This document shows, in pieces, positions 15,924-38,747 of a stretch of DNA of 64,000 nt; within the stretch, counting starts at the first letter, position 1; each line of letters begins with the position of its first letter. Made by a program: the position numbers and the translations under genes. This DNA is from Candidatus Kapaibacterium sp. GTDB lineage: Bacteria; Bacteroidota; Ignavibacteria; OLB7. The notes under the pieces are model-generated. The model was not told the origin of the DNA. It saw only the letters and a list, made by a program, of their open reading frames with translations, and made no database searches. The stretch covers positions 265 through 64,264 of the forward strand of contig DASZRW010000059.1 in NCBI GenBank assembly GCA_035549015.1, read 5' to 3'.

Positions 15924-18866
15924 TCAGGCTGTCCGTACGGTTTCGGCATTGATGCTCCGAAGCCGAAGAACGTCGTTGTGGTTGGCGCCAAGAGTCTGCT
16001 CCATCATCCGGATGGCCTGCTGCATGAGTGACTCGCCGGCCGCCGCATCACCGGCGGCATGCAGTGTCCATCCCAGGCGAAAGGTGCTGTTGATCGTTTC
16101 AACATTGTCGTCTCCAAGCGCGTAGCGTCGTATCTGCAGCGCACGCCGAAAGAGCGTAATCGCCTCCGGCATTTCATCGCGGCCTCGCATGACTCCGGCG
16201 AGATTCGTCACTGCCACTGCCACCATCGGATGATTCGGGCCCAGCGTTCGTTCGTAGATGCCGATCGCCTCGCGATACAGGCGGTCGGCATCCTCCGTGA
16301 TGCCCTGGCTGTGAAGCGCGAACGCCATGTTCGTGATGTTCGATGCCGCCTCCGGATGCTCCGCTCCCAGCGTTGCCCGGTTCAGTTCGAGTGCCTGCGA
16401 GAAGAATGCATGGGCCGCCTGGTGCTCGCCGGTTGCCGTCCGGACCGCGCCGAGCGTGTTGAAGACCATCGCCATGAGCAGCGGTTCCCGCGCAACATGT
16501 GCGTTGCAGAGCGCCAGTGCCTGCTGCAGTTCCTCCTCCGCCTCGGCGAAACGTCCCACGGCATAGAGCAGGGCGCCGAGATCCGCCATGTTGCGCGCCA
16601 CGTCGGGATGATACTCCCCGAGCGAGCGGCGGCGAACCGCGAGGGCGCGCCGCGATGACTCGATCGCCTCGTCGCTGCGGAAGACGTGATACAGGAGGGT
16701 GACAAGCGTATCGAGCGCCCCCGTCATCTCCAGCGTATCGCCCTGCCCATCGCCGGCGCGCATCCGCAGCGAGCGGCGGCAGAGCGCCTCGGCATCGGCA
16801 TAGCGTCCGGCCTCGAAGAGAAATCGTGCGATGGCATCGAGCGTGGCGGGAAGCGCCGACGGATCGGCCGTGCGCTCGTATTCCTTCAGACTCTGTGCGT
16901 ACGCAGGGCCCATCTCCACACGCTCGCCGATCTCCAGCCAGTAGTCGAGAAGATCGTACCCCCCGTCTGCGCCGAGAAGCGTTGTGGCGATCGGAATCGA
17001 TTCGATGCAGGCGGCAAGCTCCTCCCGGCGCCCGGCCTGCAGCCACTGCCACGGCTCCTCGAACGCCCGGCGTGCGGATACCGGTTGCGACCGGAAGAAT
17101 GTTGCAATGCGCACGTGCACATCGCCGGCCGCGTTGCCATTCTCCGCCGCCAGATATCGCGCCGCCACGGCATCGCGCAGATAGTCGTGGTAGAAGGTGA
17201 GAAGATTGTCGCGCTGAATCAGATGATGATCCATCGCCGTGAGCAGGAGATCGAGCCGGCCGGCATCGGCGCCGGTGATCGCGTGCAGCTCGGCGCGGCC
17301 CAGCCCCTGGCGCGACGCCCTGATAAGCGTGGCGACGTCGCGAACAAGCGCCTCGCCGTGCTCCGCTTCCAGACGGCGCAGCACACGGTCGAACAACTCC
17401 GTGAGATTGTGCGCCTCCAGATAGTACTCGATGCGATCGTTCACCTCGGCGCTCGTGCGGGCGCGCCGCATCTCCTCCGCGCCGGTGCGGAGGAAGAGTG
17501 GCGTGGCGCCCGCGCTGCTCTCGGAGAGCCTCGTGAGCTGCGTGCCGGAGATGGTGCCGCCGAACTCCTCGATGTAGCCGCGCAGCACCTCACGCCGTTC
17601 GCGCAGCGTGAGCGGGCGTACATCCAGCTCCGGCCATCCGCGAGCGCGCAGCCGCGCAAGGCTTTCGCCTCCGGTGGTGGAAACGATCAACCGCACCTTC
17701 GGCTGAAGATATTCGGGCAGCCAGCCCAGCGACTGCGACTCCAGGTCCAACTGGTTCAATGCATCGATGGCAAGCACAAGCTCCTCGTTCTGCACGTTGG
17801 CCAGCCAGACCGGAAACGCCTCCTCGATCTCCGCGCTTCGTTCCGGCAACGCCGTCTCCAGCGCGTACCGTTGCCGGATCTCCTCCATCACGCGCCGCAT
17901 GAGCGCATGATGGCTGCCGCCCCCCGTTCCGCAGCCAACGTAATGTTCGATCACGAACGCGTCCGGATGGCGCTCGCGGTAGCGGCTGCACCAGTGTGCG
18001 ATCAGCGCGCTCTTCCCTCCTCCTGAAACCCCGGTGATCACCATGCCCGGATTGCCGCCGGCCTCTCCGCTCCCTTCCCGGTGCGCCTTCCCCTGCTCCT
18101 CCAGATGCCGGTTGAGGCGTGCCACATAGTCATCCACATCCAGATAACTCCGGCGCCGCGTGAGTGCGTAGGCCTGGTGCGCTCGACGCTCCGCTTCGAT
18201 TGTTCCGGTACTCTCCATCGATGAGAGCGATGCCTCGATCACCCCCATGAGATCGTTCTGTATCCACCGCGCAAGCACTTCCGGTTCGGCGGCCCGCTCC
18301 CGTACGGGGAATCCGCTCCTCCTGATGCGTGCCTTCAATGCGGCAAGGCGTTCGGCGCCCGTCCCGCTTCCGGCGTCGAACCCCTCTGCGTCAGCCGCGC
18401 GTTCCGTATTCGCGCCGATCCCCTCCTCATCCTCCACGATGTAGAAGAATGCCCGCGACTCCATGGGCGGATGTCGAAGCGCGCCTTCGATCATCAACAT
18501 CTCGAGCAGCCCCATCCCTTCCTGCAGCGCTCCGTGCAGCCACGGGTGGCGGAGAAGCAGGCCGGTATTCTCCACGTCCGCATGTGTGGGAACCCATCCG
18601 TACGATCTCCCGGCAAGCCCGAGCAGGATGGGCCGTTCCCGCTGCAGCAGATCGAGCGCGAGTGCCAGGCGTCCCCCGTGCGGCATACCGGCCCGCGATG
18701 CCGGGCTGCAGGGATCGATCACCACGAGTTGTGCCTCCCGCTCGCGGCAGATCCGTTGGAGTTCCGGAAATGTCTGCGTGAGAAGATGGTCCGGAAGCGG
18801 ACCGGCTTCATCGCCGGAGCGGGCGAGAACGATCGTGATGGTTGGATGGGCACCGGTTGGTTGCAT
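15924..18866 (-). CDS. STAND NTPase (NB-ARC-like) with C-terminal TPR repeats (paralog 1)
   Basis: Walker A GVSGGGKSAL and Walker B LVLAIDALNQLD. The IVSTTG and GATPLFL (GxPL) motifs are typical of AP-ATPase/NB-ARC. The C-terminal repeats are TPR_12-like. The start is inferred at MQPTGAHP. Confidence 0.85.
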   Translation of the reverse strand: MQPTGAHPTITIVLARSGDEAGPLPDHLLTQTFPELQRICREREAQLVVIDPCSPASRAGMPHGGRLALALDLLQRERPILLGLAGRSYGWVPTHADVENTGLLLRHPWLHGALQEGMGLLEMLMIEGALRHPPMESRAFFYIVEDEEGIGANTERAADAEGFDAGSGTGAERLAALKARIRRSGFPVRERAAEPEVLARWIQNDLMGVIEASLSSMESTGTIEAERRAHQAYALTRRRSYLDVDDYVARLNRHLEEQGKAHREGSGEAGGNPGMVITGVSGGGKSALIAHWCSRYRERHPDAFVIEHYVGCGTGGGSHHALMRRVMEEIRQRYALETALPERSAEIEEAFPVWLANVQNEELVLAIDALNQLDLESQSLGWLPEYLQPKVRLIVSTTGGESLARLRARGWPELDVRPLTLRERREVLRGYIEEFGGTISGTQLTRLSESSAGATPLFLRTGAEEMRRARTSAEVNDRIEYYLEAHNLTELFDRVLRRLEAEHGEALVRDVATLIRASRQGLGRAELHAITGADAGRLDLLLTAMDHHLIQRDNLLTFYHDYLRDAVAARYLAAENGNAAGDVHVRIATFFRSQPVSARRAFEEPWQWLQAGRREELAACIESIPIATTLLGADGGYDLLDYWLEIGERVEMGPAYAQSLKEYERTADPSALPATLDAIARFLFEAGRYADAEALCRRSLRMRAGDGQGDTLEMTGALDTLVTLLYHVFRSDEAIESSRRALAVRRRSLGEYHPDVARNMADLGALLYAVGRFAEAEEELQQALALCNAHVAREPLLMAMVFNTLGAVRTATGEHQAAHAFFSQALELNRATLGAEHPEAASNITNMAFALHSQGITEDADRLYREAIGIYERTLGPNHPMVAVAVTNLAGVMRGRDEMPEAITLFRRALQIRRYALGDDNVETINSTFRLGWTLHAAGDAAAGESLMQQAIRMMEQTLGANHNDVLRLRSINAETVRTA

Positions 18867-21641: not shown

Positions 21642-21786
21642 GATTCTCTCCTGTATCGAGCGTTGATGTCGAGTTACGTTGTCGCGGAACCTTGCTGGCT
21701 GCGCATCGCGGAAGCGCACGCGAAGGCGCGCCGGCCTCGGGGCCTTTCTCCTGAGCGCCTGCCGACGGGCATGAATGGCCCCAGCC

Positions 21787-22647: not shown

Positions 22648-22683
22648 GTATTGAGTTCGTTATGCACGTGATGGTGTTGGCTG

Positions 22684-23718: not shown

Positions 23719-23777
23719 GATGGTTATCCTCTCGGTCTAGGTGTATGTGTTGTTCCGCGCCGTGGGCGCAGGAGTGA

Positions 23778-24743
23778 TTACAGCGATTGCAGTGCCGCGA
23801 GGCTCGCGGCCGCGTTCAGCGTTGGCGGAACGATGCTGCGGCGGCGTATGCCGGGAATCAGCAGAGCCCGGCGTATCGTGGCGGCCGTTGCCGATGGCTT
23901 CACCGACCACAGAAGCGCCGCGGTTGCGGTTACGAAGGGAGCCGCCACGCTGGTGCCGCTCATCGTGGTGTACCCCTGTCCGGGAACCGTACTGAGCACG
24001 CCGGTGCCGGGTGCCGCAAGCCCGCGCCGTCCGATCCAGGCGCCGAGGTTGCTCTGGCGCAGGAGCGATCCGCCGGCGTCGCACGCCGCCACCGGCACCA
24101 GCCAGGGATGGTCGAACAGATCCGCCCGTCCGATTCGCCCGTGATTTCCCGCGGCAACAACGATCAGCACGCCGCTGCTGCGGGCGCGGTTGAAGGCGGC
24201 TGTGAGTGTCGGACTCTCTTCGATGGCGGTGCTGTTGGCGCCGAGGCTGAGGTTGATGATCGCGGCTCCTGCGTCGATCGTGTCGTGGAGCGCTTCGGCG
24301 AGATCGGTGGGACGGACGGCGGGACATTGGCGGGGATCGGGGGCTTCGCAGAAGATCGTTCGCACCAGCATCGTACAGCCGGGAGCGATCGCCGGGGCCT
24401 GCGATCCGCGTTGCGCGCCGATGATGCCCGCAACGAACGTTCCATGCATGCAGGCGAAACTGCTCGGTGCCGTACAACCCGCCGGTGTGGCGGTTCCAAC
24501 GGGCGATATCCTCGTCTCGCGCAGATCGGGATGTCCGGTGTCCACCGGGCCGTCGATGATGCCTACCACGATCTCCGGTCGCCCCTCGGTGAGCGATGTC
24601 AACGAATCCAGTGCAATGATGCCGGGTAACGACGCCATGATGTGTTCGCTTCCGTTTGCGCACGGCACGGCCATTGCGTGCAGCGCGCATGATTGAATGA
24701 TGTTGATGTTCGGGGGTTGGGATGGTGCCGACGGGGAATGCAC
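23778..24743 (-). CDS. Subtilisin-like serine peptidase (S8 family), apparently leaderless
   Basis: Catalytic Asp (VGIIDGPVD), His (HGTFVAGII) and Ser (GTSVAAP) motifs in the canonical order. No obvious signal peptide. ~300 aa. Confidence 0.85.
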   Translation of the reverse strand: MHSPSAPSQPPNINIIQSCALHAMAVPCANGSEHIMASLPGIIALDSLTSLTEGRPEIVVGIIDGPVDTGHPDLRETRISPVGTATPAGCTAPSSFACMHGTFVAGIIGAQRGSQAPAIAPGCTMLVRTIFCEAPDPRQCPAVRPTDLAEALHDTIDAGAAIINLSLGANSTAIEESPTLTAAFNRARSSGVLIVVAAGNHGRIGRADLFDHPWLVPVAACDAGGSLLRQSNLGAWIGRRGLAAPGTGVLSTVPGQGYTTMSGTSVAAPFVTATAALLWSVKPSATAATIRRALLIPGIRRRSIVPPTLNAAASLAALQSL

Positions 24744-24959: not shown

Positions 24960-26681
24960 TTACGTAGGCCGGGCTCCGTGAAGGCCGGCGAGGAATGTGG
25001 TGAGGTTCATCCTCGGGCTCAGGCCAAGCTTCCTGCGGATGTTGTGGCGGTGCGTATGAACGGTGCGCACCGATGTGAACAGGAGGTTCGCGATTTCCCT
25101 GGTGGAGAGGTTGATGCGGGTGAGCGAGCAGATGCGAAGCTCCGTTGGCGTCAGCGCCGGCCATTGCTGCGAGAGATGCTGCAGGAAATCCTGATGCGGC
25201 GTATCCAGCTGTCCCTCGAATGCAAGCCAGTCGCTTTCTCCCCCGGAGGCGTGGCGCAGCTCGGCGATCATCCTCTCCACGGAATCATCTCCGCTTCCTT
25301 CCTGATTCCCGGCCCGTGCCGCCCGTGTGGTGTGCTGCAGTTTCTGCAGGCGCCGCTCCAGCGTTTCAAGCAGCTCGTTCTTCTGAACCAGGCGCAGGGA
25401 CATCGCAGCGATCTCGCTCTGCCGCGCGCGCGCCTCGGCCTCCAACGTCTCGGCGCGCAGACGGTAGGCCTCCCGCTCGCGGTCCGAACGTTCCAGATCG
25501 AATCGTACCTGCAACTCCGCCAGAGCGCGTTGCTTCTCGACGCCGGCCAGCTCCTCGCGCAGCGCTCCATGGAGCCTGCAATGTTCCAGCGCGCGCTCGC
25601 TGCGCCCAAGCCGGTGATACAGCGCCGAGAGCGCGGCATGCGCTTCCGCCTGTTGCTGAAGCGCGCCGGTTGCTCGTGCCAGGCCCAGCACCTGATCGAA
25701 AATGAAGAGCGCGCGATCGTATTCTCCGATGCCGGCATGCAGCCGGCCAAGCGCCAGAAGAATGCGAACGCGCAGAGCGTCATCGGAGCCGTCGCGCAAC
25801 GAGGCATAGGCGCGCATCGCCATCGCGAGCGCCGCGGCGGGTTCTCCCATCTGTTCGTGAATCTCGCTTATCAGGATCATCACGGCGCAGGCGCTCTGCG
25901 CGTCGTTCAACATGTCGTAAATTGTCAGCGCACGTAGTGCATGGTCGATCGCGCGCCGAGGCTCGCCGCGCCAGAGGTCGATCTCCGCCATGCGCGTACG
26001 CGCCTCAATTTCCCCCAACCGATTCCCCGTCTCCCGACATAGAACGATGCTGCGTTCCAGCGCCTCGATTGCGCCCGGTGCGTCGTGTGTGCGCATGTGG
26101 AGCGCAGCCAGCGATGCAAGGATGCGTGCGGCCGCATGGCGATCGCCCTGCATCTCCTGCAGAGCAAGGCTTTCCAGGTAGCGCTCCATCGCCTGTGCGT
26201 AATCGCCGATCGATGCGTACAGGTCGCCCAGCGATTCGAGCGCGGCGGCGCGGGTCGCCGGGGCCTGGCTGCCGGCCTCCTCCAGCGCCGTGTGGTACCA
26301 TCGATGGGCCTGCGTGCGATCGCCCGCGCCCGTGAACGCCTGCGCAGCGGCAAGGGCGCAGGAGGATGCGCTGTCGTGCCGTTGAAGCTCGGAGAATATT
26401 CCATGTGCCTCGCGGAGATCCTCCAGTGCCGCGGTATGCTGCTCCAGCCGTTGCAACGCGCAGCCGCGTAGATACAGCAGCATTGCGGAGGAGGCGATAT
26501 TCCGCAGGCGTACGGAGATCGCGTACCCTTCGGATGCCAGGCCGGCTGCATACGATGGCTGCTCGCGGACGAGAGCCGGGAGCGATGCCAGGATCAACTC
26601 CAGCTTCCGCGCGGCATCGCTCGTCATCAGCAGGCGTTGCTCGATCTGCCCGGTATCCGTGGTTCCCATTTCGATCTGCAT
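24960..26681 (-). CDS. TPR-repeat transcriptional regulator with C-terminal LuxR-type HTH (paralog 2)
   Basis: Same architecture as paralog 1. C-terminal LTPTELRICSLTRINLSTREIANLLFTSVRTVHTHRHNIRRKL. The start is inferred at MQIEMGTTD. Confidence 0.85.
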   Translation of the reverse strand: MQIEMGTTDTGQIEQRLLMTSDAARKLELILASLPALVREQPSYAAGLASEGYAISVRLRNIASSAMLLYLRGCALQRLEQHTAALEDLREAHGIFSELQRHDSASSCALAAAQAFTGAGDRTQAHRWYHTALEEAGSQAPATRAAALESLGDLYASIGDYAQAMERYLESLALQEMQGDRHAAARILASLAALHMRTHDAPGAIEALERSIVLCRETGNRLGEIEARTRMAEIDLWRGEPRRAIDHALRALTIYDMLNDAQSACAVMILISEIHEQMGEPAAALAMAMRAYASLRDGSDDALRVRILLALGRLHAGIGEYDRALFIFDQVLGLARATGALQQQAEAHAALSALYHRLGRSERALEHCRLHGALREELAGVEKQRALAELQVRFDLERSDREREAYRLRAETLEAEARARQSEIAAMSLRLVQKNELLETLERRLQKLQHTTRAARAGNQEGSGDDSVERMIAELRHASGGESDWLAFEGQLDTPHQDFLQHLSQQWPALTPTELRICSLTRINLSTREIANLLFTSVRTVHTHRHNIRRKLGLSPRMNLTTFLAGLHGARPT

Positions 26682-26806
26682 GGCGGAAATCGTTTCGGTT
26701 GCAGACTCCGGTACCGCGCGTGTTCGTGCCGATGGTCCGGACACGAGGCGCGGCGATGCCGGAGCCTGTTGATGTTCGTTCAACTCATTCCCAGGAGCGT
26801 TGCGCT

Positions 26807-27268
26807 ATGGATTCCCCATCCACACCGGCCGGCTCTGTTGCCCGGTCGGTTATCGATTTCAAGCTCCCGGTGGCGAAGAACCAGCAGGCGTTGGTGCTGG
26901 TTCGGTTCACCGGGACGTTGGCGAAGTGGGTCTCCGTGTACTTCCCGAACCGCATCAAGGTGGTGTCCAGTTGCGAAGCCGGCACCACCGCCGTGCCCAT
27001 CGTGCTGGACAATCACGGCGAGGAGCCGATGGATCTGCAGCTCGTGCCGGAATGCAGCGAGAAGGAGTGTCCCGATCAGAATCCCTCCGCGCAGCTGAAC
27101 GTGATTCTCCAGTACGAATCGTCCAGCCCGATGCGCCACTGGCTGCTCTCCGCATCGGAGATATCGGAATCCGATACGATCTCCATCACCATCATCGTGC
27201 AACCCGGCATCATCATCGACCCCGGAAGCGGAGATGCAGTACGTATTCCGGCCCGCACCATGCCGTGA
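26807..27268 (+). CDS. Small protein, paralogous family member (S2a)
   Basis: 153 aa. ATG preceded by a GGAG-like RBS. C-terminal ISITIIVQPGIII motif. Confidence 0.5.
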   Translation: MDSPSTPAGSVARSVIDFKLPVAKNQQALVLVRFTGTLAKWVSVYFPNRIKVVSSCEAGTTAVPIVLDNHGEEPMDLQLVPECSEKECPDQNPSAQLNVILQYESSSPMRHWLLSASEISESDTISITIIVQPGIIIDPGSGDAVRIPARTMP

Positions 27269-27357
27269 TTCGAACTCCACATGTCCGGGAACGGCACGGC
27301 AGCCGTTCCGCGCTCGATAAATTCAACCGAACCAACAATCGAATTCCGAGGTATCTC

Positions 27358-27765
27358 ATGCTGCAATCCGACAATCCAGCCTTCCCCGCTGCTCTGCCTG
27401 TTCCAACGTTCCCCATGGTAGGGACGTCGGACGCCAATCTGATCTGTCTTGTCCATGTCGCGTTTCTGGGGCCTACTGAAAAGGTCGTCACCTTCACTCT
27501 CGTCGGTCGCAGCGCCCCCTGGATCACCGTGAACTCCGGCGATGGTCCGTTCTGGAGCCGCATATTCCAGCCGAAGGACGGGCTGAGCCTGATAGGGGTG
27601 CCCGATGTGGCGAACTGCGCGTGGTGGTCGCCGCTCGGTGCCTGCGCCGGCAGCATATACTCCGCCTTCACCTACGGATATTCGCTCAACACCGGCATCG
27701 ATCAGGATGCCGTGCTGATCACCATTATCGTGCAGCCGGGAATCATCGCTCCCATTCCACTGTAG
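27358..27765 (+). CDS. Small protein, paralogous family member (S2b)
   Basis: 135 aa. C-terminal VLITIIVQPGIIAPIPL motif. Confidence 0.5.
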   Translation: MLQSDNPAFPAALPVPTFPMVGTSDANLICLVHVAFLGPTEKVVTFTLVGRSAPWITVNSGDGPFWSRIFQPKDGLSLIGVPDVANCAWWSPLGACAGSIYSAFTYGYSLNTGIDQDAVLITIIVQPGIIAPIPL

Positions 27766-27786: not shown

Positions 27787-30700
27787 TTACAGTGCGAACT
27801 CCATCCGGTACGCCAGTTGTGCCTGGATCTCGTTGCAGATCGCATGCAGGGAGATGATGTCCGGATGGGTTGCGCCCAGGTGCGCCTCGTGAATCGGAAT
27901 GGCCCGGCTGTAGATCTCGAACGCCTCGCCCAGACGTCCCTGCATGCGCAGCGCCCCGGCCAGGCGGGTAGCGCTGCCGGCCGTTTCCAATGCGTCCGCT
28001 CCGAACAGATCGCGGCGGATAACATACGCGCGCCGCAGCAGCTGCTCCCCCTCCTCCAGCTCGCCGCTGTCGCGCAGCATCATGCCGAAGCTGGTCAGGA
28101 AGAGAGCGGTCCTTGGATGCCGTGCGCCGAGAATCCGCTCGGCGCACGCAAGCGCATGCCGGTAGTGCACGGCTGCTGCGGAGGTATTGCCCATCTGTTG
28201 AAGCGCGAATCCCAGGTTCACCCGGTTCGATGCCGTCTCCAGATGTCCCTCTCCCAGCAGGCAGCCGTTCACCGCAAGGGCGCGTTCGAAGTACATGGCT
28301 GCCTCGGCGAAGTCCCCGCGAGCCACCCGCATCGCGCCGAGATTGTTCACGATCATCGCAACCGCAGCCTCGTCCGCGTCGTTGGCGAGGCAGAGCGCCT
28401 CCAGCAGGTGGATGTCCGCCTCCGCATGGTCCCCGCATGCATGGTACATCGCACCCAGCGCGGCCAGATTGCGTGCACGGTGCTTCGCATCCATTCCAGA
28501 CGCAGCTTCGCGCAGGCGCAGCGCGCGTTCGGAGACGCGGATCGCCCGCTCCCACTCTCCCGTGTGATAGAGCAGCGTTGCGTACGAATCCAGTGCCGGG
28601 AGCATCGTGGGGTTGTCCTCACCGTGAGCAGCGCCGCGCTCCTCCAGTGCCGTGCGGCACAGGTGCTCCGCCTCGGCGTAGTGCCCGGCGTGAAGCAGAA
28701 GGCCGGCAATGGCCTCGCGTGCTGCGACGAGATCCAGCGAAGGGTTCGCTTCCAGCTGGCAGGCCTGCATCGCAGTGCGATACGTTTCCACCATGCCGTA
28801 CCGATTCTCCAGCGCCCTCCAGTATTGCAGCAGTTCGTACGGGTCGCCGTCGGCAAGCAGCATCGATGCCGTCCGGATATCCGCGATGGCGGTGTGAAGC
28901 TTCCGCCATGCGCCGGCATGCATTGCCTGCCACGGTATCTCCTCCACGTGGCGGCGTGCAATGGGCTGGGATGCAAACCAGTCCGCGATCCGCTCGCGGA
29001 TCTCCGGGATGCGTCCGGGGCGTTCCACCAGATAGCGCCGCTCCACGGCTCTGCGGAATCCGTCGTGGTGGAAGCGGAACAGTCCCTCGTGGCCGATCAG
29101 ATGGCAGCCGAGCGACGCCAGCACCTCCTCCGTCTCCCCTTCGTCCAACAGGCCGATCGCCGCGATCTCCTGCCGCGCAAGGCCGCGGCGGGCCGCCCAT
29201 AGCAGGGTGAGCACCGTGCGCATCCGTGCCACGCCATGCCGGCCTTCCAGTTGTTCCAGTACGCGATCGAACAGCTCCGGCAGCGTCTCCGCCGCGAGAA
29301 GGCGATTCAGGAGAGCCGGTTCATCTGCGCCGGAAGCGGTTGCGTTCAGCCTCTCCAGTTGCGTTCTCAGATAGAGGGGGTTGCCTCCTGCCGTCCCCGC
29401 CCCGATGCGTGCGTACCAGTCGCCGTAGCGTGCCTCCCCGAACTCGCGAACGTATCGGGTTATCAGGTCGCGCCGTTGCTTCTGCGTAAGCTGCACCATG
29501 CGAAGCTCCGGCCAGGCTCGCGCGTGCAACGCCGCCAACGGTTCGGTATCGGTGGTGGAGACGATCAGCAGCACATGCGGCGGAATATGTTCAGGAAGCC
29601 AGGAGAGATCCCGGGAAGCTTCGTCGAGCTGATCGAGGCCGTCCACCACCAGCACCAGGTTCTCATGTTGAAGATGTCCCAGCCAGAGCGGAAACGCCTC
29701 ACGAATGCCGGCGGCATCCGTTGGGAGCGGATCGTCCACGCCGAGGCGTTCCCGTATCTCCGCCATGATGTGGCGCAGCACCGTGGCGCCGTCGTTGCCG
29801 GCGGATGCGGCCGCCACGTGATGCTGCACGATGAAGAGGTGGGGATGCTCGCTCCTGATCCGTTCGCACCAGTATGCCAGGAGTGCGCTCTTTCCCGCGC
29901 CCGATTCACCGGACACCACCAGCCCGGCATTGCGCTCCGGCTCGTCCCTCTCCGCAGCCGCCGTTCCGGGCTGGTTGTTCAGGAAATCGTCCAGGCGCTC
30001 CAGGTATCCCGGAATCTCCATGTAGGCATGCGTGCGCGAACGCGCGAACGATCGGTGCATCCGGCGCTCCGCATCGAGAGGCGAGCCGGTGGCAGCGGGA
30101 AAGAGGCGGTTGATCAGGTCCATCAGGTCGCGGCGAACGAGGTCGAGCAACTGCTCCCGCGTATGCACTGTGTGGTGCAGCGTCTGCCCGCTGGATCGGA
30201 TCATGTCCAGGATGCGCTCGCGTGCGGCGGCCGCAACGTTGCGCCGGCGCCGCGGCATCGCATCGTAGTACGACATTTCCTTCTCCGCCTGCGTACCGGA
30301 GACCGATGGAGGGGGTGCGGTGGCGTAGGCCTCCGGATGTTCCGGAGCCGGGTCATAGGGGAAGAACAACATCCTTCCGGCGAGCGCCGGGTTCCGGAGC
30401 GCGCCTGCGAGCGCCTCCATCGAAAGAAGGAACGGTGAGCCGGCAGTCCCTGCGCTGCGCCAGCGATACGGGTCGGTGCGGGCATCGCGGCCATCTGCGG
30501 CAGGGGGGCCCTCTACCGCCGGGTTGCTTCCAACGATCACCAGCACATAGATCCGCTGCCCGGTGTGCGCTGCAGGGGGGTGGTTGAAGATCGTCTCACC
30601 GTATGCCCCGGCTGTATCTGTGCCTGCAAGCTCGCACGTGGCGATATCTCCGCCGCGCGCGCGGCAGATGCCGCTCAGCTCCGGCAGCAGCGCCTGAGCC

Positions 30701-30804
30701 AGCCATGCTCGTTCCGCATCGATATCGCACTGTATGCCGACGATCGCGATCCGGATCAACGGGAACGCATCGTGCGGCGATGGTGCCGAGGGCTCGCAAC
30801 TCAT
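27787..30804 (-). CDS. STAND NTPase (NB-ARC-like) with C-terminal TPR repeats (paralog 2)
   Basis: Walker A GESGAGKSAL, Walker B LVLVVDGLDQLDE, IVSTTD and GGNPLYL motifs, and a TPR_12-like C-terminal array. The start is inferred at MSCEPSAP. Confidence 0.85.
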   Translation of the reverse strand: MSCEPSAPSPHDAFPLIRIAIVGIQCDIDAERAWLAQALLPELSGICRARGGDIATCELAGTDTAGAYGETIFNHPPAAHTGQRIYVLVIVGSNPAVEGPPAADGRDARTDPYRWRSAGTAGSPFLLSMEALAGALRNPALAGRMLFFPYDPAPEHPEAYATAPPPSVSGTQAEKEMSYYDAMPRRRRNVAAAARERILDMIRSSGQTLHHTVHTREQLLDLVRRDLMDLINRLFPAATGSPLDAERRMHRSFARSRTHAYMEIPGYLERLDDFLNNQPGTAAAERDEPERNAGLVVSGESGAGKSALLAYWCERIRSEHPHLFIVQHHVAAASAGNDGATVLRHIMAEIRERLGVDDPLPTDAAGIREAFPLWLGHLQHENLVLVVDGLDQLDEASRDLSWLPEHIPPHVLLIVSTTDTEPLAALHARAWPELRMVQLTQKQRRDLITRYVREFGEARYGDWYARIGAGTAGGNPLYLRTQLERLNATASGADEPALLNRLLAAETLPELFDRVLEQLEGRHGVARMRTVLTLLWAARRGLARQEIAAIGLLDEGETEEVLASLGCHLIGHEGLFRFHHDGFRRAVERRYLVERPGRIPEIRERIADWFASQPIARRHVEEIPWQAMHAGAWRKLHTAIADIRTASMLLADGDPYELLQYWRALENRYGMVETYRTAMQACQLEANPSLDLVAAREAIAGLLLHAGHYAEAEHLCRTALEERGAAHGEDNPTMLPALDSYATLLYHTGEWERAIRVSERALRLREAASGMDAKHRARNLAALGAMYHACGDHAEADIHLLEALCLANDADEAAVAMIVNNLGAMRVARGDFAEAAMYFERALAVNGCLLGEGHLETASNRVNLGFALQQMGNTSAAAVHYRHALACAERILGARHPRTALFLTSFGMMLRDSGELEEGEQLLRRAYVIRRDLFGADALETAGSATRLAGALRMQGRLGEAFEIYSRAIPIHEAHLGATHPDIISLHAICNEIQAQLAYRMEFAL

Positions 30805-30887
30805 TGCCGGTTCCGAAAGAATGGTTGACACGAACTGCTGCAATCGCATGCGGCGGCCTGGCCCATGCGGTTGCCGGACATATCGCG

Positions 30888-31037: not shown

Positions 31038-31286
31038 CTACTTGAAGTCGCTGGTCTTGCCCGAGTGGGTGCACTGTACTCCGGGGAACTCATAGGTCTT
31101 GCCATCGCCATCGAACACACCGCTGATGTTGTAGTGGTGCCCCACCGTTGGAAGGTCTCCGGCGCTGAATGGGCCGGCGGAGAATACTCCGAACTCGGAA
31201 TATGTTCCCGTGCCGTCCGTCAGGTCGCCAGATCCCTGAATCGAACGAACAATGACGCGTGTGTAGTGACCGACAGGATTCGCCAT
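31038..31286 (-). CDS. 82-aa conserved small protein (copy 2)
   Basis: Paralog of 19604..19852 with the same length and ~75% amino-acid identity. It sits upstream of STAND paralog 2. Confidence 0.6.
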   Translation of the reverse strand: MANPVGHYTRVIVRSIQGSGDLTDGTGTYSEFGVFSAGPFSAGDLPTVGHHYNISGVFDGDGKTYEFPGVQCTHSGKTSDFK

Positions 31287-31584
31287 GTCTTGATTCTCCT
31301 CTGATTGAAGGTGATAGATATCGGTAGCGCCCTCGGCGGCAAGTGGCCGTTGCCACTTCAGGCGCTACGTGCGAAACGGCTGCGTTGCGATGGCTGCATC
31401 CCTCCGGATGTATCGCGACGAGACGATTGCTCGTAACGCGAGTACGTGGATTCGAGGTGCGCCCGGTCGCTCAGTTCCGTTTCGCGATTCCGTAACGGCA
31501 TGCCGGGAGGAGGTTGCTCCAACCGCCCCTCCGCCCGGCGATGCCACTGCTGCCACTCGTTGAGGTCGATGCGAGTTGCGGCTG

Positions 31585-32217
31585 CTACGATTGAACGAAC
31601 GTTCCGGAAGCGCTGTTGAACTTGAGAGAGACGCTTGTGACCGTGCCACCGAACGTCACCTTGGTATAACTGGTATTGATCTGAGAGATCATCGTCTCGC
31701 TTGCGAAGTTTGCCTGCAGCCACACATAGACAACCGTGAACGGTGTGAGCGTGTCGTAGGCCTGGCTCAATACCATGTCGGCGTTCAAGGCATTGAATCC
31801 GCCCGGAACGCCGTTGATGATGGCCGGCTGCGTAAGTCCGAACGTGAGCGCCCGGTACTTGCTTGCCGGCATGGCGTTATCGATGCGATAGCTGGTGAGC
31901 GGAACGTCGGATGTGGCGACGCCCTGGGAAAAGATTGCGTTGGGCAGGAAGGTGTACGTTGATCCGCCTTCGGCCGGCGAGAATGTGCTGAGCTTGGAGA
32001 TCGTGGCGCCATGCTCCACGGTGCTCGTTGCCGCGTAGATGCCGTACTGCTCCGTCCACGATACGGTGTTGTTCTCGAACGGATCGAAGCTCTGCCAGAT
32101 CACGTTGGGCGCGGCGCCTCCCACCGGCTTCGCGAGCGTGATGTTCATGCCGGCAGCGCTGATAACGGCCAGTTCGGTCGGGTCGATCTGCAGTGAAAGT
32201 TCATAGTTGTTAGCCAT
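31585..32217 (-). CDS. Hypothetical protein (210 aa)
   Basis: ORF with GC3 bias. The start is set at MANNYELSLQIDP. No recognisable motifs. Confidence 0.45.
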   Translation of the reverse strand: MANNYELSLQIDPTELAVISAAGMNITLAKPVGGAAPNVIWQSFDPFENNTVSWTEQYGIYAATSTVEHGATISKLSTFSPAEGGSTYTFLPNAIFSQGVATSDVPLTSYRIDNAMPASKYRALTFGLTQPAIINGVPGGFNALNADMVLSQAYDTLTPFTVVYVWLQANFASETMISQINTSYTKVTFGGTVTSVSLKFNSASGTFVQS

Positions 32218-32828
32218 GTCGCTTGTTCCTGAGTTGATTGATACGTGAAGAGTGATTGCTCCGGCCGATCGTGAGCGCCTGCATGCGCCGCTGTGCACAC
32301 GGCTGCATCAAGCCTCGGAGTGCGCGGCCACGCGAGATGTTGAGGCGCGGCTGCATGTGTCACGATCGGCCTTGCGGTTGTGTTGTCCGTCATGACGTTC
32401 ATGCAAAGGTCGCTGCACCGTGCGGCCGCAGATCTACTGAGGTATTACCGAGTTTATTCGCCCCACGCCGGGCCCTTGCTCTGCATGCGCTGCAGGGCGA
32501 ACGCGCGCAATCGGGCGCAGTCTGCGGGAAGTTCAAGGGGGTGCGGCCACGCAGCCCGTTTCGTGCAGGGGATTGAAGTCGGCGTCGACATCCGGCTGGC
32601 GCATCTTCGGTACTGAACTTCTACCGAGGCGGCGCCGTTCATGAGCCGACGGCGCGAAGGAATTGCGCGGCTGCGATGCGGAACGCACGGCCCGGCAGGC
32701 GGAAAGCCGCGGCCGTGTATGGCAGGCAGGGAGCAGTGATGCGGCGGAGATCGACTGCCGGGCAGGCGGCCGTCCACCCGGGAATGAGAGGGGAGAGAGT
32801 GATGATGATTCGAGCACCCGGCCGTGGA

Positions 32829-34511
32829 CTAGAGCGAGGCGAGGAAGGTAGTGAGGCTCACCTTCGAGTCCAGGCGAAGTTTGCGGCGGATGTTGTACTT
32901 GTGCGAGTCCACCGTGCGAACGGAGGTGCAGAGAATTGCGGCGACATCCTTGGTGGAGAGATTGATGCGGGCAAGCGAGCAGATCTTCAACTCCGTCGGC
33001 GTCAGCAGCGGGCAGCGCTCCGAAAGGAGCCGGATGAAGTCCTGATGGAGATGATCGAGCTGCTGCTCGAATATCTTCCAGTCCGCATCGGCATGCTTCG
33101 TGCTGGTGATCTCGCTGATCATCCGTTCAACCGTATCGGTGCCGGAGCGGCGGCTCTCGCCGTGCAGCTTCTCGAGTTGATACTGCATGTCGGCGAGCAG
33201 TTCCTTCTTCTGCAGAAGGTTTACCGCCATGGCCGTGAGCTCGTTCTGCTTCAGTCGCATCTCGGCGCGGAGCCCTTCAACCTGCAGGCGATACATTTCC
33301 CGCTCGCGCTCCGCCTTCTCCAGATCGAACCGAACCTGCAGTTCGGCGATTGCATGCTGCTTCTCGCGACCGGCCAGTTCGTTCCGGAGTTCCGCGAAAT
33401 GGCGATAGTGTTCGAATGCCCATTCAATCTGTCCAAGGTGGTGATAGGCATGCGAGATGGCGCCGTGCACCTCGTACTGAAGACGCCGATCGTCGATCGC
33501 GCGCGCCAGTGCCAGCGCCTGATCCAGCACGAAGACGGCGTCGTCCATCGCGCCGAGTGCGGTGTGCAGGCGCCCCATGTCCAGCAGAAGCTCCACGCGC
33601 CGCGTGTCGTCGGGCGACTGGCCCAGCAGCGAGTAGGCGCGCATTGTGAGGCCCAGCGCGGCATCGTACTCATGCCGTGCCGCATGAACGCGTCCCAGCA
33701 TCGCCAGCACGGTCCCCACATTCTGCAGGTCCCCCAGCGTCTCGTAGATCGTGAGCGCCCGAAGTCCGTGTTCGGCTGCGCTCTCGCCGTTGCCGGTGGC
33801 GAGATCTATTTCGGCGAGATGCCGCAGTGCGTCCACTTCACGGAGACGATTCCCGGATTCCCGGAACACCTCGGCGCTTCGGCGCAGATATTCGCGGGCG
33901 GTCGTGTGGTCGTTCGTGCGTCCGTACAGGATGCCGACCGCGGCCAGGGCATGCCCCACACCGTCGTGTACATCGCTCGATTCATACAGCCGGAGAGCGT
34001 CCAGATAATATCCGAGCGCCTTCGGGTAGTCGCCGATGCTCATTCTCAGATCGCCGATGGAGAGTGCCGCCGCGGCCTGGAGGTCCGATGCCCCGGCATG
34101 CATTGCCCGTTCGAGTGCCGTATGCAGCCAGTCGATCGCATGCGGGGCCATGCCGGCGGCGAGGTGCGCCCGGCCTGCCTGCAGTGCGCAGACGGCGGCT
34201 TCCGAGTCGTGGCCAAGATCCACATTGATGCAGTACGCCTCCACAAGGTCGGCAGCCCCCGCATCGTGATTTCCGAGAACAACGTATGCCTCGCCGCGAC
34301 GGCGCAGAATGCGTGCAGCTGCCGCCATGTTGCGCGACGAGGCGGCGAGGCGATACCCCTCGCTCGCCAGGCCGACACTGTACGGCGCGGCGCCGGCCGC
34401 GGCCTCGTCGAGAAATTCCAGAATCAGATCGAGCTTCCGATTCCGATCCTGCGCCATCAACAGCCGGCGTTCGATCGCCTCGATAATTCGTTCCTGGTCT
34501 GCTGTCCCCAT
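32829..34511 (-). CDS. TPR-repeat transcriptional regulator with C-terminal LuxR-type HTH (paralog 3)
   Basis: Same architecture. The C-terminal 200 aa are nearly identical to paralog 1. The start is inferred at MGTADQERIIEAIERR (561 aa), which matches the paralog lengths. The ORF-track 5' extension overlaps the opposite-strand genes. Confidence 0.85.
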   Translation of the reverse strand: MGTADQERIIEAIERRLLMAQDRNRKLDLILEFLDEAAAGAAPYSVGLASEGYRLAASSRNMAAAARILRRRGEAYVVLGNHDAGAADLVEAYCINVDLGHDSEAAVCALQAGRAHLAAGMAPHAIDWLHTALERAMHAGASDLQAAAALSIGDLRMSIGDYPKALGYYLDALRLYESSDVHDGVGHALAAVGILYGRTNDHTTAREYLRRSAEVFRESGNRLREVDALRHLAEIDLATGNGESAAEHGLRALTIYETLGDLQNVGTVLAMLGRVHAARHEYDAALGLTMRAYSLLGQSPDDTRRVELLLDMGRLHTALGAMDDAVFVLDQALALARAIDDRRLQYEVHGAISHAYHHLGQIEWAFEHYRHFAELRNELAGREKQHAIAELQVRFDLEKAEREREMYRLQVEGLRAEMRLKQNELTAMAVNLLQKKELLADMQYQLEKLHGESRRSGTDTVERMISEITSTKHADADWKIFEQQLDHLHQDFIRLLSERCPLLTPTELKICSLARINLSTKDVAAILCTSVRTVDSHKYNIRRKLRLDSKVSLTTFLASL

Positions 34512-34727
34512 GATCCGTTGCCATAACGATGAAAGAATACATCCGGCACGAACGCGCGGTGCGGAGTGCGGCGGTGTTCGTCTGCGCCGCCGGTCAACTC
34601 GGTAATTCCTCAGTAGTGCGGAAGCCCGTCCATCTCGATACCATTGCACCAACCAACACCGGGCCGTGCAACGCAGCGGCCCGCCAACATCAGCCGGCAT
34701 GTTTGCCGCAACCAGGAGGATCTCATC

Positions 34728-35150
34728 ATGACAGGTGCAGGTATCGTCACCATCGAGGAACTCGAAGCGATCACATCCATTCCGATCACCGAATTCCTTC
34801 CGGACTCCTACTGCCAGATCGTAGTCGAGTCCACGTTGAACGAGACCGTCGTGGTTTCGATCGTTGATGCCAAACTCATCGCAGTCGAAGGCGACAAGCT
34901 GGCCGGCGGGGAATCGTATACAACGCGCATCTCCGGCGAGGATATGTCGCTCCAGCCCTACACGCTGAACATCCTCTCGCGAACCGCGATGATTCATACC
35001 TGCAAGACCGGCTACTACACACTCCCGGACGACGAGACGAATTATCAGATCGAACTGTGCCGCATGGTGCCGTTTCCCGACACGACAACGGACGGGCAGA
35101 TCAACATCACGATCATCCTCCAGCCCACGGACATCCTCACGGAGCCGTAG
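34728..35150 (+). CDS. Small protein, paralogous family member (S3a)
   Basis: 140 aa. AGGAGG RBS before the ATG. C-terminal INITIILQPTDIL motif. Confidence 0.5.
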   Translation: MTGAGIVTIEELEAITSIPITEFLPDSYCQIVVESTLNETVVVSIVDAKLIAVEGDKLAGGESYTTRISGEDMSLQPYTLNILSRTAMIHTCKTGYYTLPDDETNYQIELCRMVPFPDTTTDGQINITIILQPTDILTEP

Positions 35151-35229
35151 CTGGTTTCCCGGGAAGTGCATTCAGGCTGCGGTTGCGGGTTCGTGCAGCA
35201 TGCGCGGTCAACATTCAACGAGAGAAACA

Positions 35230-35658
35230 ATGGCGGAACACTGGCATGCTCGTCATGGAGGACCCATTCGTGTACCGGTATTTCCCGTAATCGATCCCGG
35301 CGTCGGACTCTATGTGGTTATTCATATCGTGTTCAACGGGTCCGGGCTGAAGAGGGTGACATTCACACGCCCGGGAGAAACGATGCCGTGGCTTGTGGCG
35401 GAATTGCCGGGGACCGGTTTCTGGAATCATGTATACCGTCATCAGGATGGCATCAGCCGCCTTGCGATATCCGGAATGGACTCGATGCCGGATTGGACGT
35501 TCCTCGGCCAGAAGAAAATGACGAGCGACGGCGTCGTCTCCGCGTACACGTGCCAGTATCTCCTTGCGGAGAGCCCGCATGAGTCCGTGCTCGTCACCAT
35601 TCTTCAACTGCCCGGATCGCCGGGCGGAGCTGCTGAAGCGCCGCGCCGTGTAGTGTGA
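35230..35658 (+). CDS. Small protein, paralogous family member (S3b)
   Basis: 142 aa. C-terminal VLVTILQLPGSPG motif. Confidence 0.5.
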   Translation: MAEHWHARHGGPIRVPVFPVIDPGVGLYVVIHIVFNGSGLKRVTFTRPGETMPWLVAELPGTGFWNHVYRHQDGISRLAISGMDSMPDWTFLGQKKMTSDGVVSAYTCQYLLAESPHESVLVTILQLPGSPGGAAEAPRRVV

Positions 35659-35795: not shown

Positions 35796-38747
35796 TCACT
35801 GCTGCTCGGCGCGCTCTTCGATTTCATCCATGATTCTGAATATCTGGATTATCTCCGGATGGTCGCCTCCAAGCACCGGCTCCTGCACCACGATCGCCTC
35901 CCTGTACAGCGCCAGCGCCTCGCCGTACCGTTCCTGCCGGCAGAGCGCACCGGCCAGGCGTGTCATGCTGGTTGCCGTTTCGATCGCATCCGGACCGAAC
36001 GTCTCGCGGCGAATATCTGCGGCGCGCATCAGCAGATCCGTTGCCTCGTCAAGCTGGCTGGTCTCCCGCAACAACATGCCGAGGTTGGTGAGGAAGAGCG
36101 CAACGTGGGGATGCTGCGAGCCAAGTACGCGTTCGGCGATGCCGAGTGCCTCGCGATACTGCGCAGTTGCGGCGGCAGTGTTGCCGGTGCGCTGCAGCGC
36201 GAAGCCAATGTTCACCAGATTCGACGCCACCTCCAGATGTTCGGCGCCCAGCAGCCGCCGGTTCAACTGCAATGCATGTTCGAAGAAGCGGGCCGCCTCC
36301 TCGAAGTGGCCAAGGGTTGCCCGAAGCGCGCCGAGATTGTTGGCGGCGAGGGCCAGGATTGTGTCGTCCGTATCGTTGGCAATGGTGAGGGCGCGCATCA
36401 GATAATCCTCGGCGTCGTCGTAGGCATGCATGGCATGGCACACGGCTCCGAGATCGGCGAGGTTCTTCGCGATCTCCGGGCCGGTGATGCCGTCTCCCGT
36501 CTCGCGAACGGCCAGTGCGCGGCGCGATATCTCGATCGCCTCGGTGTAGCGTCCGGTGTGGTACAGCAATGCTGCGAGCGAGTCCAGCGTCCCCAGGGAG
36601 TCGCGCCAATCGGGCCGGCCGGCCGTGTGGTGCACGGAGAGTGCGCTGCGGCAGAATCGTTCGGCGGCCTCGTATTCTCCGGCCTGCACGAAGAACTCCG
36701 CCATCGTACGAAGCGCGGCAACCAGCGCGCGTGGCGAGGTGTCCGCCTGCCGGTATCGCTCCATGGCAGTGAAGTATGCCTGCGCCATCTCACCACGATT
36801 CCCCACAACCAGCCAGTAGTGGAGGAGCTGGTAGGGATCGTTATCCTTCAGCAATTCCATCGCAAGCGGGATATCCGTGATCGCGGCGCGCAGCTCCTCC
36901 ACCTCACCGATGGCGGCGAGCTGCCACGGCAACTCCTCTGCGCGGCGGGGCGTCTCCTGCTCGGAGCCGAAGTAGCCGGCGATGCGCCAGCGCACGCGTT
37001 TCAACTCATCGCGACGCCCGAACAGATATCGCCGGTCCACGGCCCGGCGCATGTGGTCGTGATAGTAGGTCAGCAGCCCCTCGCGCTCCATGAGATGATA
37101 GTTCAGTGCCTGCACGATCGCGGCAAGCTCCTCGCGTTCGATGCCGCTGGCTCCGGCCAGTTCCGTTTCCGAGAGTCCGCGCCGCGATGCAAGAATCAAC
37201 GTCAGCACCGTGCGGAGATTCTCCCGGCCGAAACGTTCCTCCAGCCGCACAAGCACGCGTTCGAACAACTCGGGGAGATCGCGTGCCGTGAGGTAGTAGT
37301 CGATGTGCTCGTTCAGTTCCGCGGCCGATCCGCCGCGGCCGCTCTCCTCCAACTGTGTTCGCAGATGCAGCGGGTTTCCTCCCGTGCTCGGCAGGCTGAT
37401 GCGATCCAGTTGCGCAAGGTTGTGGCGCCTGCCGAACTCCGCAGCGTACCGGTGCGCGAGATCGCGGCGCTGCTCGAGCGTGAGCGGTTGAACGTGCAAC
37501 TCCTCCCACTCGCGCTCGCGCAATACTTCCAGCGCGTGCGACTCCGTGGTGGAGACGATCACCGTTACACGGGGCGGTATGTAGAGCGGCAGCCATGCCA
37601 GATCCTGCGACTCCGGTTGAAGCTGGTCCAGCCCGTCGATGATCAGCACCAGATTCTCGTTCTGCACGTGGCCAAGCCAGAGCGGCAACGCCTTCTCGAT
37701 CTCCGCGCCGTCTGCAGGCACGGCATCGGCAAGTGCGTAGCGTTCGCGCAGCTCCATCATCACATGGCGCAGCAGTGGAACATGGTCGCTTCCGGACGAT
37801 GTGATGGCAACGTGGTGGAGAACGATGAACGCCTCACGACGTTCGTGTTGCAGCCTGCCGGTCCAGTATGCCAGGAGGGCGCTCTTGCCGCAGCCGGAGG
37901 GGCCCGCAACAACCAGCCCCGTTCTGCCGGAACGTTGCTCTGCGGATCTCCGGCGGTTCTCCGTCCTGCCGAACGCGAATTGCTCCAGCCGTTCCAGATA
38001 TTCCGGAATCTCCACATATGCCCGCGTGCGCGAGAGGGCGAACGCCTCATGCGCCCGTCGTTCCAGCGCAAGCGGCGTGAGCGTTCTGCAGGCTGGGAGG
38101 AGCCTGTCGATGACGGCTTCGAGATCAGCGCGGATATGGGCAACGAGTTCGTCGCGGCTCTCGATCCCGTCGCGCAGCGGATGCCGGCTGGAACGAATCA
38201 GCATCGCCGCTTCTTCGGCGGCGCGCAGCGCATGTTCCGCCGCGCGGGTCTCCGGCTCGATCCCCCCATGCCGTGCCGGCATGTAGAAGAACAGCCTGCC
38301 GACGGTTGCGGTATTGGAAAGGACGTACGGCAGCAGCGACGCGGGCACAACGCCCGCACCGCCGCCGGATGCGCGTTGCCACGGAAAGCGCCTGCTCGTC
38401 TCACCGTTCGATCCGGTTTGCAACCCGGCACTGTCCGTCCCGACGATTGCAATCACATATGCATGCCTGGCCGCCACCTCATCGAGCTGGCGCTGCAGCA
38501 ATGCCTCGGACTGTGCCGCCTCCGTTCCCGCTCCGGTGTCGGCGGCGAATTTCATCTCGGCGAAGTCGCCCCCGCGTGCCCGGCAGATATCCCGCAGTTC
38601 ATCGAAGAGATGCATCGAGAGATGCGCACGCTCCGCGGTCACATCCCCAAGGACTCCGATTACGGCAACACGCAGACGATTCGATTGATCGAGCGGGGAT
38701 GGCTCCAATGGTATACCACTCAACTCCAGCTCCTTACGGCTTGGCAT
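35796..38747 (-). CDS. STAND NTPase (NB-ARC-like) with C-terminal TPR repeats (paralog 3)
   Basis: Walker A GPSGCGKSAL, Walker B LVLIIDGLDQLQPE, IVSTTE and GGNPLHL motifs, and a TPR_12-like C-terminus. Confidence 0.85.
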   Translation of the reverse strand: MPSRKELELSGIPLEPSPLDQSNRLRVAVIGVLGDVTAERAHLSMHLFDELRDICRARGGDFAEMKFAADTGAGTEAAQSEALLQRQLDEVAARHAYVIAIVGTDSAGLQTGSNGETSRRFPWQRASGGGAGVVPASLLPYVLSNTATVGRLFFYMPARHGGIEPETRAAEHALRAAEEAAMLIRSSRHPLRDGIESRDELVAHIRADLEAVIDRLLPACRTLTPLALERRAHEAFALSRTRAYVEIPEYLERLEQFAFGRTENRRRSAEQRSGRTGLVVAGPSGCGKSALLAYWTGRLQHERREAFIVLHHVAITSSGSDHVPLLRHVMMELRERYALADAVPADGAEIEKALPLWLGHVQNENLVLIIDGLDQLQPESQDLAWLPLYIPPRVTVIVSTTESHALEVLREREWEELHVQPLTLEQRRDLAHRYAAEFGRRHNLAQLDRISLPSTGGNPLHLRTQLEESGRGGSAAELNEHIDYYLTARDLPELFERVLVRLEERFGRENLRTVLTLILASRRGLSETELAGASGIEREELAAIVQALNYHLMEREGLLTYYHDHMRRAVDRRYLFGRRDELKRVRWRIAGYFGSEQETPRRAEELPWQLAAIGEVEELRAAITDIPLAMELLKDNDPYQLLHYWLVVGNRGEMAQAYFTAMERYRQADTSPRALVAALRTMAEFFVQAGEYEAAERFCRSALSVHHTAGRPDWRDSLGTLDSLAALLYHTGRYTEAIEISRRALAVRETGDGITGPEIAKNLADLGAVCHAMHAYDDAEDYLMRALTIANDTDDTILALAANNLGALRATLGHFEEAARFFEHALQLNRRLLGAEHLEVASNLVNIGFALQRTGNTAAATAQYREALGIAERVLGSQHPHVALFLTNLGMLLRETSQLDEATDLLMRAADIRRETFGPDAIETATSMTRLAGALCRQERYGEALALYREAIVVQEPVLGGDHPEIIQIFRIMDEIEERAEQQ

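Follow-up and report, generated by a model that had tools for sequence, protein, structure and literature searches.

A degenerate DUF4062 domain, most likely non-catalytic, at the N-terminus of three bacterial STAND paralogs

What kind of domain stands at the N-terminus of three neighboring STAND proteins of Candidatus Kapaibacterium sp., and could it still work as an effector? We address this question for a 64,000-nucleotide stretch of DNA (hereafter the window; assembly GCA_035549015.1, contig DASZRW010000059.1, positions 265 to 64,264), in which three long open reading frames (ORFs) on the minus strand encode the paralogs par1, par2, and par3 (Table 1). A sequence-only reading had placed these ORFs correctly and marked the segments 30200-30804, 18270-18866, and 38150-38747, all of which do lie within the N-terminal region, as a possible TIR-like effector domain that might be related to DUF4062. 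In short, we are fairly confident that the domain can be read as a diverged, catalytically degenerate member of DUF4062 (also called “NIR”), a family of TIR-like enzymes hydrolyzing nicotinamide adenine dinucleotide (NAD+), and that it most likely serves as a non-catalytic assembly or adaptor module.

The three proteins share one order of domains in Pfam: an N-terminal domain of ~215-250 amino acids (aa), NACHT/AAA_16, the NWD1-type winged helix HTH_NWD1, TPR_NPHP3, and TPR_10/TPR_12. The NACHT cut-off of 26.7 bits is reached by par2 (27.6) and par3 (30.3) and missed by par1 (20.3), only par2 (39.3 bits) passes that of AAA_16 (32.6), and HTH_NWD1 matches all three below its cut-off. For TPR_NPHP3 (cut-off 100 bits), par1 and par3 score 130 and 141, and par2 scores 92. 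Walker A is intact throughout, whereas the Walker B pattern hhhhDGLDQL was confirmed in par2 and par3 and read by eye in par1 as LVLAIDALNQL, so that the NACHT ATPase looks functional in every copy. With a NACHT P-loop carrying Walker A and B, a winged helix, and TPRs, the paralogs are assigned to the bacterial NPHP3/NWD1-like family (DUF4062, NACHT, winged helix, TPR), and their N-terminal domain stands where STAND proteins usually carry their effector, as had been proposed. The start of par1 at ATG 18866 is backed by that of its ortholog. For par2, the candidates are ATG 30849, a database version starting six residues later, and Met16 at 30804, the domain beginning at about residue 29 in each case. 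Finally, par3 is identical to P0001, a database protein annotated as Candidatus Kapabacteria (GCA_964643935.1, contig CAZXUY010000009.1).

Standard searches are of little help in naming the domain. Pfam gave no match to the isolated N-termini of par1, par2, or par3, even at an expectation value (E) up to 10, and none of the three attains the PF13271 gathering score (24.7 bits). NCBIfam and PADLOC scans yielded nothing informative for these N-termini; when the par2 N-terminus was submitted by itself to a word-indexed homolog search, no protein was retrieved, par2 included, and a 12-sequence alignment brought only two. Since standard Pfam annotation misses the window domains entirely, surveys of DUF4062 based on PF13271 would undercount degenerate members.

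The relation becomes visible through the relatives of the window proteins. A search with par3 residues 1-600 found 15 proteins, 10 of them carrying PF13271, and eight of these 10 cover 92-96% of the query, including the N-terminus. Using HMMER, a profile built only from the window N-termini was run against 1.84 billion cluster representatives and matched 2480 proteins (E<=1e-3). The three clusters to which the window paralogs belong rank first, the next score (186 bits) follows after a gap, and seven of the eight best matches outside these clusters pass the PF13271 cut-off with 38-64 bits. The canonical consensus reads VFISSTFRDMxAERDxL..FP.LR..CR.RGV....DLRWG...CL.EI..CRPYFIGLLGERYGWVP...PW....SVTELEILHGVL.NP....AFFYFRDP, and the window proteins are collinear with canonical relatives, without register problems, in a 12-sequence N-terminal alignment (A2). 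Comparing cores only (four window-type against eight canonical sequences, linker and NACHT excluded), hhalign reports a probability of 99.4% and E 3.6e-21 over 135 columns. The family profile of A2, which includes the window sequences, matches chain 11gz_A of human TEP1 (E 7e-40; profile positions 7-210). As this match spans chain residues 3-218, the ~200-aa region would form one structural domain. The match of A2 to the Klebsiella Swarozyc protein KpSwz is marginal (22 residues, E 0.006). A search of the PDB sequences with the window-only profile (A3) found neither TEP1 nor KpSwz at E<=10. Against a hidden Markov model (HMM) of the canonical core, relatives score a median of 204 bits, human TEP1 126, par1 57 (E 1e-17), par3 32 (E 8e-10), and par2 8.7. 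On these alignments, the N-terminal domain of all three paralogs is a homolog of DUF4062 over the whole domain; the suggested DUF4062 relation is borne out by hhalign, by the TEP1 chain match, and by PF13271-bearing homologs aligning end to end, and the suggestion of an alternating strand-helix, TIR-like module is supported.

Low-confidence AlphaFold2 models, built from shallow alignments of 12-14 sequences (predicted local distance difference test, pLDDT, 60.9 for the par2 N-terminus and 47.9 for the par3 core), order the elements as beta-A, alpha-A, beta-B, (alpha-B), beta-C, insertion, alpha-C, beta-D, and alpha-D, an order that fits a TIR-like fold in which beta-C is followed by an insertion. 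In par2, this low-confidence prediction puts strands at 31-39, 68-71, 99-106, and 160-165 and helices at 44-64 and 144-151. The par2 counterpart of the crystallized TEP1 TIR-like construct ends at about residue 250 (nt 30100), slightly past the earlier boundary of 30200, and the helical extension beyond the par2 core belongs to that construct as well.

The three copies resemble each other to different degrees. Core identity is 34% between par2 and par3 (pairwise E 3e-21) and 25% between par1 and par3 (E 3e-5), while par1 and par2 are joined by two short high-scoring segment pairs only (E 5e-4 and 0.012). The region is homologous in all three paralogs, but the idea of one shared sequence block holds for two of them only. 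The motif quoted for it, h-R-[IV]-A-[IV]-[IV]-G...D..AER...ICRARGGD, is confined to par2 and par3, and par1 has ITIVLARSGDEAGPLPDHLLTQTFPELQRICREREAQ in its place, without D..AER. The second hydrophobic strand is present in each (YVLVIVGS, YVIAIVGT, and ILLGLAGR).

Whether such a domain could cleave NAD+ depends on residues that are known from its relatives. DUF4062 has been described as a TIR-like NADase with a catalytic Glu (Osinski et al. 2026, bioRxiv 10.64898/2026.05.01.722283). According to the same study, KpSwz needs E97, and human TEP1, which hydrolyzes NAD+ and NADP+, needs E1008, whereas Ala at R908 or R976 lowers its activity (bioRxiv 10.64898/2026.05.01.722283). In the chain numbering of 11gz (offset 893), these residues lie in STF-R-D (R908), G-x-R-Y-G (R976), and S-V-T-E-x-E (E1008). 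For the Evangelion protein Eva01, F11A, E87A, and W162A each abolish defense (Ibarra-Chavez et al., 2026 preprint), and a third 2026 preprint (10.64898/2026.09.04.749371) renames the domain “NIR”.

We aligned 158 relatives to the canonical-core HMM and followed 15 signature positions, each conserved in 150-158 of them. The position of E1008 is Glu in 153 relatives, and 138 keep the full set. Out of these 15 signatures, par1 has lost 11, par2 11, and par3 12. Taking par1, par2, and par3 in that order and using TEP1 numbering, F902 is replaced by V13, A35, and A28; S904-S905-T906 by A-R-S, V-G-I, and I-G-V; DLRWG 940-944 by DPCSP, ELA-G, and KFATG; R976-Y977-G978 by S-Y-G, N-P-A, and D-S-A; and S1003 by G, F, and G. 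R908, which is Arg in 69% and stands outside the 15, has become D19, C41, and G34. The pair E913-R914 (only R914 is among the 15) reads L-P in par1 and is kept as E-R in par2 and par3. The catalytic Glu, finally, which the earlier reading had proposed to look for in an alignment with homologs, turned up in par2 (E145, aligned with TEP1 E1008 and KpSwz E97, and within helix 144-151 at the alpha-C position of the low-confidence model) and is missing from par1 (L124) and par3 (S137). The par1 ortholog in another metagenome-assembled genome (MAG), GCA_018266795.1, carries Val rather than Leu in this column.

The losses fall on the pocket, from which F-x-S-S-T, the BB-loop motif D-L-R-W-G, R-Y-G, Ser1003, and the two Arg that coordinate sulfate at a putative phosphate site are gone. 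The scaffold survives, with the end of helix alpha-A (FPEL..ICR.RG), the Gly of beta-C, P-W, helix alpha-C (L..AL.NP), beta-D (R.FFY), and the helical extension (IRSSG...DL..VI..L); par1 keeps the YGWVP and PW motifs and lacks SST, D..ER, and DLRWG. Because the Glu is essential in every DUF4062 and TIR NADase tested, we infer that par1 and par3 are unable to hydrolyze NAD+. The same probably goes for par2, because its retained Glu stands without either Arg and without the aromatic and BB-loop motifs. The active effector role implied by the sequence-only reading is therefore not upheld, with the catalytic Glu in par2 only and near-invariant pocket motifs gone from all three. Such losses have occurred more than once in the DUF4062-NACHT-TPR family, as P0050, P0055, P0026, P0031, and P0124 have independently lost 5-12 of the 15 signatures. 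Three of these five also lack the catalytic Glu, and a scan limited to E<=1e-5 gave no PF13271 match for P0026. Among the sampled close relatives, ~3% are likewise degenerate.

The domain is conserved beyond this genome, and the lack of wider conservation that would have spoken against the sequence-only reading is not seen. MAG GCA_018266795.1 holds a par3 ortholog (P0002, 87% identical, in conserved synteny) and a par1 ortholog (86.9% identity over 586 aa). Compared with P0019, the nearest canonical relative, the NACHT regions of the window paralogs are 47-52% identical and those of canonical peers 53-55%; for the N-terminal core, the figures are 30-34% and ~51%, respectively. The excess divergence is thus specific to the N-terminal domain. 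A neighbor-joining tree of the NACHT-winged helix region unites the paralogs and P0002 in one clade (77/100), with par2 and par3 together (95/100) and canonical P0019 as sister. Given this single clade and the common losses of SST, R908, DLRWG, R976, and S1003, degeneration would have begun before the duplications. Afterward, the copies diverged separately: par1 lost D..ER and kept YGWVP, and par2 and par3 did the reverse.

How might such proteins work? By analogy with the family and with STAND proteins in general, a canonical member would bind its trigger through the TPR array, upon which the NACHT ATPase would oligomerize and bring the N-terminal TIR-like domains together to hydrolyze NAD+. 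In the window proteins, TPR-triggered oligomerization of NACHT would gather the N-terminal domains, whose proximity would then create a non-catalytic surface for assembly or adaptor work, much as in scaffolding TIR domains. This surface could signal to candidate lineage-specific partners duplicated alongside (LuxR-type regulators and small proteins), as the gene neighborhood suggests.

Several points weigh against a non-catalytic adaptor. Its role and its partners are deduced from co-duplication only, and the alignment is uncertain for the first 25 residues of par1 and for the BB-loop region. Scans of genome and metagenome contigs found no par2 relative or ortholog, so that purifying selection (see below) was measured for par1 and par3 only. 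Above all, par2 retains D42 and E46-R47 in addition to the catalytic Glu, and residual or altered catalysis in this copy is conceivable. TIR-type active sites form between protomers upon oligomerization, and a paired or hetero-oligomeric sensor-executor system can be imagined, in which par2 still processes NAD+ (perhaps in a remodeled pocket) and co-assembles with catalytically dead par1 and par3 as its sensors or regulators, comparable to plant RRS1/RPS4 or to NAIP/NLRC4. The exact placement of E145 in the catalytic column, the three neighboring genes of a single clade, and the concentration-dependent activity of TEP1 would all suit such a system. We nevertheless think it unlikely. Of the three copies, par2 has diverged furthest (8.7 bits against the canonical-core HMM), and it lacks both Arg (C41 and N109), SST, F902, DLRWG, RYG, and Ser1003. 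Furthermore, between its par3 and par1 orthologs (L002 17161-21155; the only part of that genome searched for it), GCA_018266795.1 has DUF1353 and pyruvate kinase genes where the window has the par2 cassette, and no par2 copy, which argues against an obligatory executor; the contig scans found no par2 relative either. It may be that par2 arose through a recent duplication confined to its lineage, or that the second MAG has lost it.

A decaying remnant without a function of its own, in proteins that work through NACHT and TPR only or are pseudogenizing, has the wholesale loss of the catalytic signature and the faster divergence of the core on its side. The par1 ortholog (L002 21156-22913) has moreover replaced the only Gly that is invariant in A2 (par1 G86, TEP1 G974) by Glu (LGLAESSYGWVP vs LGLAGRSYGWVP). 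On the other hand, the core ratio of nonsynonymous to synonymous substitution rates (dN/dS, Nei-Gojobori) to the orthologs in GCA_018266795.1 is 0.16 for par3 (bootstrap 0.08-0.30) and 0.20 for par1 (0.12-0.35), with upper bounds that make it indistinguishable from the NACHT (0.12-0.15) and TPR (0.14) regions. The N-terminal domain of par1 and par3 is under purifying selection, and we reject the remnant, a very improbable explanation, on these ratios. In addition, reading frames are intact, and scaffold positions and full domain length persist in all three copies after two duplications. Purifying selection and this retention argue for a non-catalytic function of the fold, that is, assembly or adaptor work as favored here. 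Lastly, a small alpha/beta domain of independent origin, Rossmann-like or otherwise, whose likeness to DUF4062 is an artefact of aligning the adjacent NACHT is hardly credible and was rejected on the core-only hhalign result, since the silence of Pfam, the failure of the window-only profile to find TEP1 or KpSwz, and non-discriminating fold searches are outweighed by that result, by the scores of par1 and par3 on their own against the canonical core, and by motifs in register with the family (FPEL..CR.RG, the beta-C Gly, PW, L.NP, and R.FFY).

The surroundings of the genes suggest where an adaptor could signal to. The locus is no recognizable defense island. Instead, the STAND genes sit in a cassette repeated three times (13636-15825, 24960-27765, and 31038-35658, with 19604-19852), composed of an 82-aa protein, the STAND gene, one or two convergent small proteins with a common C-terminal ITIIVQPG-like motif, and a TPR + GerE/LuxR-type regulator. 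An ADP-ribosylglycohydrolase gene (PF03747) adjoins the regulator of the par1 cassette; canonical DUF4062 activity yields ADP-ribose. Between the par2 and par1 cassettes lies a minus-strand gene set (19962-24674) resembling those for ribosomally synthesized and post-translationally modified peptides (RiPPs); two of its peptides resemble precursors that combine a leader and a Cys-rich core. A more far-reaching proposal, doubtful as it stands, is that a STAND lineage turned an NAD+-depleting TIR-like effector into a non-enzymatic adaptor and then triplicated it with the TPR-LuxR/GerE factor, the 82-aa protein, and the ~140-aa beta-rich proteins, the output being transcriptional, possibly on the adjacent RiPP-like genes, rather than abortive infection. 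If true, it would parallel, in a prokaryote, the transition of animal TIR domains from enzyme to scaffold, and the locus could serve as a model for why human NWD1, NWD2, and NPHP3 show no NADase activity.

Other genes nearby deserve a brief mention. A large P-loop protein, unassigned except for an N-terminal AAA_16, is followed by a PLDc_2 protein bearing a Por secretion tail, and the second MAG conserves both. The 201-aa gene called immediately next to the par3 start probably begins ~62 codons later, because its ortholog in the second MAG has 139 aa, starts at the equivalent of residue 63, and shows a lipoprotein-like signal (ASCG/VSCN).

Table 1. Features of the window discussed in the text (window positions; +/-, strand)
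Feature	Position	Strand	Remarks
par1, STAND protein	15924..18866	-	980 aa; ORF, translation, Pfam; exact protein on record in MAG contig
par2, STAND protein	27787..30849	-	1020 aa from ATG 30849; ORF, translation, Pfam; same gene called in public MAG contig
par3, STAND protein	35796..38747	-	983 aa; ORF, translation, Pfam; identical to P0001
par1 putative degenerate DUF4062/TIR-like domain	18225..18842	-	core 18429-18842
par2 putative degenerate DUF4062/TIR-like domain	30100..30765	-	residues ~29-250; core beta-A to beta-D 30349-30759; remainder, conserved helical extension
par3 putative degenerate DUF4062/TIR-like domain	38097..38675	-	core 38274-38675
par1 Leu124, catalytic position	18495-18497	-	
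par2 E145 codon	30415..30417	-	only copy retaining the Glu
par3 Ser137, catalytic position	38337-38339	-	
par1 Walker A	18009-18032	-	GVSGGGKS, intact
par2 Walker A	29887..29910	-	GESGAGKS, intact
par3 Walker A	37881-37904	-	GPSGCGKS, intact
82-aa proteins upstream of par1 and par2	19604-19852, 31038-31286		73% identical
Convergent small proteins, ~135-153 aa	15400-15825, 26807-27268, 27358-27765, 34728-35150, 35230-35658		no Pfam match
TPR + GerE/LuxR-type regulators, 560-573 aa	13636-15324, 24960-26681 (-), 32829-34511		42-47% identical; co-duplicated with STAND genes
ADP-ribosylglycohydrolase	12581-13516	+	PF03747
Peptidase_S8 (subtilase)	23778-24674	-	
Two PatG_D/PatG_C proteins	22684-23718, 20628-21641	-	32% identical
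Laminin_G_3 protein	21787-22632	-	
Two Cys-rich peptides, 71/77 aa	19962-20177, 20348-20581	-	42% identical
Large P-loop protein	43712-47065	-	1117 aa
PLDc_2 protein	42224-43633	-	
Called 201-aa gene	38749-39354	+	

The closest known systems are bacterial DUF4062-NACHT-TPR proteins (P0019, P0004, P0005, and P0022; “nephrocystin-3” or TPR repeat protein in some sources), which have the same domain order and a similar length (~950-1050 aa) and are collinear with the window proteins from the first beta-strand to the TPRs. They keep all 15 signatures and pass PF13271, whereas Pfam misses the window copies, in which 11-12 signatures are lost. Moreover, they are single genes in unrelated contexts, and the canonical loci examined have no small-protein or GerE-regulator partners, in contrast to the triplicated cassette. 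The TIR-like domain of human TEP1 (PDB 11gz), an active vault-particle NADase, is homologous to the window domain and of the same extent; it has E1008, R908, R976, SST, and DLRWG, all absent from the window domains save for E145 of par2.

The anti-phage proteins of Swarozyc (KpSwz) and Evangelion (Eva01) belong to the same DUF4062 core family and deplete NAD+ upon oligomerization, with the catalytic Glu and the aromatic motif being essential. They are short single-gene DUF4062+AUX proteins (with a C-terminal sensor) that lack NACHT and TPR, whereas the window proteins have both and are ~1000 aa long. Models of PADLOC-DB v2 matched the window proteins only through a generic TPR model, Avs1b and Avs2 remaining at E 0.02-0.06. 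TIR domains of animal TLR/MyD88/MAL and plant RRS1 are non-catalytic scaffolds. They represent a different TIR family, for which no sequence-level relation to the window domain was detected.

Finally, human NWD1, NWD2, and NPHP3 share the DUF4062-NACHT architecture class, HTH_NWD1 and TPR_NPHP3 both matching the window proteins. The purified human proteins displayed no NADase activity in vitro (bioRxiv 10.64898/2026.05.01.722283), a precedent for a non-catalytic or conditionally active DUF4062. This comparison concerns activity and architecture, and the human proteins may have been inactive because they were not activated, and not through loss of the active site. The present locus bears on the role of these NACHT-linked members: in an NPHP3-like architecture, the catalytic signature is largely erased, yet the domain remains under purifying selection in par1 and par3 and has been kept through two duplications. 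Judged by its alignments, the locus is a pseudo-enzyme variant of an already characterized domain family.

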